Sequence record: PV340563 | Strand: one strand, 5' to 3' | DNA length: 32,366 nt | Source of the DNA: Escherichia phage PhiR44_1 | Shown: positions 1 to 108 of the stretch, piece by piece | How positions within the stretch are numbered: position 1 is the stretch's first letter | Layout: the number at the start of each line of letters is the position of its first letter | Notes under the pieces: generated by a model | The model's database searches: none | Told to the model about the DNA's origin: nothing | Seen by the model: only the letters and a program-made list of their open reading frames with translations | Program-made: the position numbers and the translations under genes

Positions 1-88
1 TTTATCAATCACTTACATCGGTTTCCGTAAGAAAACAGTAACTTAAGAAAACCTATAAGGGACTGGAAGGGCTACAAAGTTCTGAGAG

Positions 89-108
89 TGTGGACACTAT
101 GTGGACAC
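89..108. repeat. Tandem direct repeats TGTGGACAC x2 (11-bp period), candidate Int arm-type sites on the int side
   Basis: TGTGGACACTA-TGTGGACACTC just beyond the int stop codon; a related pair occurs at 32256..32274. Confidence 0.5.

Follow-up and report, generated by a model that had tools for sequence, protein, structure and literature searches.

The stretch of DNA analysed here, referred to below as the window, comprises 32,366 nucleotides of Escherichia phage PhiR44_1 (sequence record PV340563) and is a complete WΦ-type P2-like prophage, running from attL to attR and cut inside the cores of both attachment sites. The prophage site lies behind the host gene cpxP, and the window ends just past ogr. 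The first 2.1 kb at the 5′ end consist of three genes, int, C and cox, and have an identity of 99.4% with coliphage WΦ (AY135739/NC_005056); matches to many further Peduovirus records were also obtained. The int gene for the tyrosine integrase is found at 122–1132 on the minus strand, and its product carries PF24624 (Int_N) and PF00589 and is 99–100% identical to WΦ Int. The start of int in the WΦ records corresponds to window position 1102, whereas the open reading frame extends to 1132. The C immunity repressor, an HTH protein of 97 amino acids, is encoded at 1172–1465 on the minus strand. The cox gene, the first gene of the early operon, is located at 1618–1890 on the plus strand, and its 90-amino acid product belongs to the Phage_Cox family (PF10743, score 83.5 bits; cut-off 27.5). 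The identity of this protein with the Cox of WΦ is 100%, and with that of P2 45%. In phage fiAA91-ss (locus L118), the match to the window ends at 1713, within cox, and istA (IS21 transposase) is annotated approximately 110 bp further on, which suggests that cox is disrupted there by an IS21 insertion.

The common core of the attachment site, GACACCATCCCTGTCTTCCCCCACATG(A/C)TGTGGGGGTTTTTTTTATC, was defined by comparison of attB of K-12, attL of a lysogen, attP of WΦ (locus L001) and the end of the window. The same comparison places the attR copy, GACACCATCCCTGTCTTCCCCCACATGATGTGGGG(G)TTTTTTTTA, at 32323–32366 on the plus strand, where it coincides with the cpxP terminator and the 3′ end of CpxQ, an sRNA of the host. 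The remnant of the attL core is TTTATC at 1–6 on the plus strand, with position 1 in a T run and the core ending at 6, and the P′ arm begins at about position 7. The attR of strain MN06021 was guessed at −32 kb and fell in sbp/pfkA, the prophage being shorter in that strain; attR was taken from the window. The attR core copy of the window reads GGGG where attP and attL read GGGGG. The core common to attP and attB corresponds to the last 44 nt of CpxQ (cpxP 3′ UTR and terminator, b4716) followed by ATC, and WΦ-type phages therefore integrate into, and replace, the 3′ end of an sRNA, as other phages do with tRNA genes. No link of CpxQ with a prophage or with attB was found in the literature searched. 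When the window, attL and attB were scanned against Rfam at gathering thresholds, no match was returned, so none of the switch repeat, the arm hairpin and CpxQ is covered by a curated RNA family.

On the attL side, a tandem pair, TGTGGACAC TA TGTGGACAC, is found at 89–97 and 100–108 on the plus strand. The pair is assigned to the Int arm-type sites P′1 and P′2, the 9-mer being the same as in the annotated P′ arm of P2, where the sites read TGTGGACAC TG TGTGGACAC (P2 RefSeq). On the attR side, TGTGGACGC TA TGTGGACAG at 32256–32264 and 32267–32275 on the plus strand is assigned to the arm-type sites of the P arm from its match to the consensus, and the Int P arm of P2 likewise follows ogr. The period is 11 bp at both prophage ends. 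TGTGGAC is present in 4 of 4 arm-type copies and fits the consensus tgTGGaCa published for P2-type Int arm sites (PMC3448106), and the GTCCAC of the P′ sites is invariant in 23 relatives. Within the window the spaced pattern TGTGGACNNNNTGTGGAC occurs only at 89–106 and 32256–32273, both on the plus strand, and it has no match in 100 shuffles. The initial annotation had described a tandem repeat with an 11-bp period at 89–108 and a similar pair at the other end, and had taken these as consistent with Int arm-type sites divided between the two attachment sites, attL and attR. The repeats were found as described, with copies starting at 89 and 100 and at 32256 and 32267, and the reading agrees with the annotated P2 9-mer and the consensus of PMC3448106.

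The mapped order in the P2 RefSeq record NC_001895 is Int P arm, IHF, core, Cox, Int P′ arm and int, with the Cox site 16–89 nt and the Int P′ arm 87–113 nt past the core; the same annotation states that Int binding of the arm repeats was shown in P2. The order in the window, P arm, IHF, core, Cox, P′ arm and int, matches that of P2. The AAGGG boxes described below lie 51–70 nt and the TGTGGACAC pair 83–102 nt past the end of the core, the int stop codon is at 122, and in attP the core stands between the two pairs of arm sites. This positional identity with the P2 sites was observed directly. Because the order and distances are the same as in P2 and the repeats fit tgTGGaCa, the assignment of the tandem TGTGGACAC-type pairs as putative Int arm-type sites of the P2 type, with one pair in attL and the other in attR, is supported.

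The stretch at 32283–32312 is probably the IHF region of the P arm, from a reading of the sequence in which ATAAATCC..TTTAT is held in common with the IHF-protected stretch annotated in P2; no strand was assigned. A second IHF-like sequence, TATCAATCACTTA at 3–15, fits the consensus WATCAANNNNTTR perfectly and is one of only two such matches in the window. It straddles the boundary between the core and the P′ arm and is kept as ATCAATNACTTAC in nearly all relatives, whereas the annotated IHF site of P2 is on the P arm only.

Both P′ sites are enclosed by an inverted repeat at 78–116 (minus strand), located directly 3′ of the int stop codon, which is assigned as a hairpin in the int transcript from compensatory changes and folding. 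When a fixed 10-bp stem was counted by hand in 23 relatives, two-sided changes were found at 8 of 10 pairs, and 77% of cells were paired against 26–51% in slid controls. With a folding energy of −9.2 kcal/mol, the hairpin of the window is weak, and those of the relatives, at −18 to −24 kcal/mol, are strong. The RNAalifold consensus is weak (−0.94 kcal/mol) because lineages differ in the register of the outer stem. Neither the P arm nor P2 has this hairpin. A role of the hairpin as a terminator is unsupported: no T run follows it, and a simple scan finds 0 intrinsic terminators in 1–1700.

The switch region between C and cox contains two promoters. Promoter Pe, TTGACA-17-TATATT, is found at 1466–1494 on the plus strand and is annotated at 1464–1500 in AJ245959. 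The half-sites of the C operator are perfect 10-mers, TATTGGTGAC, directly repeated at 1478–1487 and 1512–1521 on the plus strand (PMC1904263). Promoter Pc is located at 1582–1618 on the minus strand, as annotated in the WΦ record AJ245959. In WΦ the Pe and Pc transcripts overlap by 82 nt and O2 lies 60 nt from the Pc start (PMC1904263), and a Pc start near 1582 agrees with both values. The arm and switch sequences are the same in the window and in WΦ except for one base, 1495. At this position, right after the Pe −10 hexamer (TATATT T), the window has a T, and a C is found in WΦ and in every other WΦ-type locus examined.

Besides the C operators, the only direct repeat of approximately 12 nt in the switch is CCTAGAAAGGAC(AGG) at 1544 and CCTAGAAGGGAC(TGG) at 1564, an imperfect 12-nt repeat of the form CCTAGAA(A/G)GGAC, which extends from +4 to +38 of Pc. 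According to the statement in PMC5009727 that cites Ahlgren-Berg 2009, WΦ Cox recognizes a 12-nt direct repeat in Pe–Pc and not the cox-boxes of P2. The predicted Cox operator of the switch is placed at 1538–1579 on the plus strand. It is composed of the inverted CCAGTCCCT at 1538–1546, the direct repeat CCTAGAAAGGACAGG at 1544–1558 and CCTAGAAGGGACTGG at 1564–1578, and the 11-mer at 1569–1579. Further AAGGG boxes are found at 1586–1593 and 1606–1613, over the −10 hexamer and over the spacer and −35 region of Pc, respectively.

The 11-mer, AAGGGACTGGA, is present as exact copies on the plus strand at 57–67 in the P′ arm and at 1569–1579 in the switch, and one copy with a single mismatch is found elsewhere in the window. 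The exact recurrence, with the second copy inside the inverted repeat of the switch, had been pointed out in the initial annotation; it was confirmed, and the match widens to 16 of 17 positions between ACCTAtAAGGGACTGGA (51–67) and ACCTAgAAGGGACTGGA (1563–1579). A second word, AAGGGCTA, is common to the arm (67–74) and the switch (1606–1613). The switch copy of the 11-mer overlaps the Pc-proximal copy of the direct repeat, at +4 to +14, and is also the right-hand member of an inverted repeat, CCAGTCCCT at 1538–1546 and AGGGACTGG at 1570–1578, that is perfect over 9 nt. By its coordinates, the switch 11-mer is thus placed in what is taken to be the published target repeat of WΦ Cox.

The inverted repeat allows a different reading, in which 1538–1546 and 1570–1578 serve mainly as an RNA hairpin in the Pe and Pc transcripts and the arm copy is unrelated or a by-product. 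The switch region folds at −21.6 kcal/mol on either strand (z of −2.7 and −3.5), both transcripts cross the repeat within their 82-nt overlap, and an inverted repeat with a spacer of approximately 25 nt is kept in most relatives as CCAGTCCCT/AGGGACTGG, CCAGCGCCT/AGCCGCTGG, CCAACCCGA/AAGGGTTGG or AAAACACCT/AGGTGTTTG, the two arms changing together. However, two inverted protein sites predict equal co-variation, the mismatches are C.C, U.U and G.G rather than G.U, and the copy in the P′ arm keeps the box without an inverted partner; there is also no Rfam family. A mainly RNA-based role is unlikely on this evidence, and an RNA role of the switch repeat could coexist with binding of Cox.

In the P′ arm, the predicted Cox boxes are assigned to ACCTAT-AAGGGACTGG-AAGGGCTACA at 51–76 on the plus strand, a stretch that includes the 11-mer at 57–67, occupies the position of the annotated P2 Cox site and co-varies with the type of Cox. 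Two boxes (57–76), spaced by 10 bp or one helical turn, occupy the interval that separates the core from the P′ Int sites. In the switch, the boxes are unevenly spaced, at 20 bp (two turns) and then at about 17 and 20 bp, and one copy is inverted. No P2-type cox-box, TTAAA(G/C)NC(A/C), was found in 1–121 or 1466–1617 of the window, which agrees with the literature in that WΦ Cox does not bind P2 cox-boxes. In the window as a whole, the P2 cox-box consensus TTAAASNCM has 11 matches against 3.8 ± 1.9 expected, scattered through the late genes, and this excess is probably a composition effect. WΦ Cox is described in citing literature as bending att DNA and forming higher-order complexes there (it multimerizes). 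As cited there, Ahlgren-Berg 2009 reported that both sites are bound by WΦ Cox and that excision requires it. Binding of Cox to the Pe–Pc repeat and to att DNA is taken from this WΦ literature, and the bases that Cox would contact are inferred.

A separate element of the arm, AAAACAGnnaCTTAnnAAAA(G)C at 32–55, is conserved in almost all lineages regardless of Cox type. Binding of C at the attachment site was also considered. Positions 50–64 of the arm resemble the C operator O1 at 12 of 15 positions, and the word ACAGTAAC is common to 35–42 and to 1469–1476 in the −35 region of Pe. This candidate was set aside; ACAGTAAC is specific to WΦ, and AAAACAG..CTTA is conserved alongside other Pe sequences.

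Related sequences that encode Cox proteins 53–100% identical to that of the window were collected from IMG/VR (80 loci), from genomes (28 loci) and from several records of phages and of E. coli. Most of the IMG/VR loci begin at the int stop codon and do not include the arm, and the arms were taken from genome contigs and phage records. Alignment of the att arms of related prophages, which the initial annotation had proposed as a check, gave an architecture that is conserved throughout: the core, AAAACAG..CTTA..AAAAAGCTG, two boxes and two TGTGGAC sites. The sequence of the boxes differs from lineage to lineage, at the arm and at the switch alike, and changes with Cox at both sites. In L057, the arm boxes are AACCGTCTGG AACCGTTTCA and the switch boxes are AGCCGTTTTA and AGCCGCTGG; in L093, AAGGGGCTGG in the arm accompanies AAGGGGTTGG in the switch; and in L119, the corresponding sequences are AGCGGTTTCA and GAGCGGTTTTG. 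The arm and switch of a Serratia prophage (L100) share an exact 11-mer, CAGCTAAAGGC, that is quite different in sequence from that of the window. This co-variation of the boxes with Cox was observed directly.

The likeness of arm and switch was scored for cognate and non-cognate pairs in 19 lineages with Cox identities of 59–100%, and mean scores of 8.8 and 7.1, respectively, were obtained (permutation p of 1e-4, uncorrected for kinship). When the window and two near-duplicates were left out, the 16 remaining lineages gave 8.5 and 7.1 (p of 8e-4, again uncorrected for kinship). Shuffled switches score 6.2 ± 0.27. Only 5 of the 19 switches match their own arm best, because a family-wide box consensus is common to all lineages. 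Variation among the Cox proteins is concentrated at positions 27–38, in the recognition helix, a stretch that includes positions proposed in the literature as specificity determinants of P2 Cox.

The phages P2_AC1, P2-T22 and Yersinia P37 and the loci L090, L119 and L120, which represent one or two lineages, are mosaic with respect to the window. Their int genes are 93–97% identical to that of the window, their P′ Int sites 97% and their core-proximal bases 94–100%. In contrast, identity falls to 63–66% in the 70-bp segment corresponding to 19–88, to 65–72% in C and to 56–64% in the switch. In P2-T22/P2_AC1, the segment corresponding to window 19–88 contains AAGGGTTTGG AGCGGTTTCA. Joint divergence of 19–88, C and the switch, across an intervening int that stays 93–97% identical, was seen in L090, L115, L116, L117, L119 and L120. 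Of 5426 complete E. coli genomes, 790 contain the 3′ end of this int, 261 contain the WΦ arm segment and 260 contain the WΦ switch with cox, these being separate totals. In three loci (L028, 1–763; L039, about 480–1095; L084, about 890–1504), approximately 600 bp are found between the int stop codon and the P′ sites. In lineages of other genera with Cox 93–100% identical, the box and the 32 nt that separate it from the Int sites are kept, also where such an insertion is present. The inserted segment may be coding and may be read towards int. The mosaic identities, the genome totals and the insertion loci argue that the arm segment follows Cox and the immunity module, not Int.

These comparisons bear on a reading in which Int, and not Cox, binds the shared motif. 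The arm copy does lie near the Int arm-type sites. However, phages with 93–97% identical int and the same P′ sites differ at 19–88, where divergence is as large as in C and the switch; AAGGGAC is not the arm consensus of Int, which is TGTGGACA; and the P2 annotation describes no Int site in Pe–Pc. Binding of the motif by Int is very unlikely. The 11-mer had been proposed in the initial annotation as a dual-site element for Cox (or Int). The part that concerns Cox is upheld by position, by the repeat known from WΦ and by co-variation; the boxes track Cox and not Int, so the Int alternative was rejected.

It has also been considered that the arm copy might be a functionless relic of a duplication, or of gene conversion from the switch. 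The identity of arm and switch, 16 of 17 positions in WΦ, is far above the 7–9 of 10 found in other lineages and fits such a copying event. Yet the box and its 32-nt spacing are kept in the lineages of other genera with Cox 93–100% identical, even where approximately 600 bp are inserted next to int, and WΦ Cox is reported in citing work to act on att DNA. A relic with no function is highly improbable.

The argument from chance had been overstated. The initial annotation held that an exact 11-mer recurring by chance in 32 kb is improbable, and as worded this is invalid; the window contains 371 direct and 362 inverted pairs of exact 11-mers (about 730). A comparison restricted to the two regulatory regions is significant: the longest word common to the arm (1–121, 121 nt) and the switch (1466–1617, 152 nt) is 11 nt, and words of at least 11 nt arise in 43 of 5000 shuffles (approximately 0.9%). 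The switch tile is the best match to the arm, rank 1 of 211 window tiles. With both strands counted, the window has 36 copies of AAGGG, and a post hoc test sets the 5 copies found in 129 nt of arm and switch against an expectation of 0.07. A functionless chance repeat, for which the abundance of 11-mer pairs speaks, is scarcely credible when each copy falls in one of the two short regulatory regions in which Cox should have a site, the match widens to 16 of 17 with AAGGGCTA shared and AAGGG concentrated there as well, and relatives show the same likeness of arm and switch with other sequences.

The explanation that accounts best for these observations is very probably that the 11-mer marks Cox recognition boxes in the switch and in attL, and that the TGTGGACAC pairs are the Int arm-type sites of a WΦ-type prophage. 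The N-terminal domain of Int would bind the arm-type pairs at 89–108 (P′, attL) and 32256–32275 (P, attR). The 11-mer would be part of AAGGGACTGG-type boxes recognized by a Cox protein with two functions. At the switch, Cox would occupy the direct repeat at 1544–1578 and the weaker AAGGG boxes, downstream of and over Pc; C and int would be turned off, and the phage would be committed to lytic growth. At attL, Cox would occupy the two boxes at 57–76 between the core and the P′ Int sites and would bend the DNA, such that Int could assemble the excisive complex and integration would be inhibited. The uneven box spacing in the switch, the low number of switches matched best by their own arm and the derivation of the alternative-arm phages from one or two lineages weigh against this explanation.

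A broader evolutionary reading is offered tentatively, and the balance is somewhat against it: the specificity of Cox may have diversified repeatedly with its operators rewritten jointly, the segment 19–88 may have been inherited with C–cox across a conserved int, and the 17-mer of WΦ may reflect recent copying. If true, this would describe a split, co-adapted module that is held together by double recombination or by selection. The co-variation of the boxes, an arm segment that travels with the immunity module, the compensated P′ hairpin and the identity of the core with the CpxQ 3′ end are of modest evolutionary interest. The box co-variation and the mosaic arm segment are by-products that could help to predict Cox specificity and to engineer excision-competent hybrid P2-like phages. 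With respect to the sites themselves, a reading from sequence alone correctly recognized the Int arm sites and the dual Cox sites that were mapped experimentally years ago, and its discovery value is small.

The arrangement can be compared with those of four known phages. Lambda has a heterobivalent integrase, direct repeats of the arm type on each of its two arms and an excision factor bound between the core and one of these arms. In contrast to the Cox of the window, Xis of lambda has no role in the lysis–lysogeny switch, and the site sequences are unrelated. Apl of phage 186 is both a recombination directionality factor and a switch regulator, but belongs to a different protein subgroup from the Cox of the window; the Int arm consensus of 186 is tgccGCCActt (PMC3448106), and its seven operators are spaced one turn apart. 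The attP of P2 resembles that of the window in the order of sites, in similar distances, in TGTGGACAC with an 11-bp period and in the Cox family (45% identity). It differs in the sequence of the boxes, in the number of arm boxes (six in P2, two in the window), and in the core and host site, which in the window is the cpxP terminator. The P′ sites are inside the int reading frame in P2, whereas in the window they lie past the int stop codon and within the hairpin. For WΦ, a 9-bp attP repeat is said to have been described by Ahlgren-Berg in 2009 as sharing 5 bp with the Pe–Pc repeat, a description that fits AAGGGACTG and AAGGGCTAC of the window. The Int arm sites, the Cox target in Pe–Pc and the action of Cox at att are already known from work on P2 and WΦ, and the Cox and Int sites in attP and Pe–Pc of WΦ (Liu and Haggård-Ljungquist 1999; Ahlgren-Berg et al. 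2009) are essentially the same DNA as in the window, with nothing of substance that differs.
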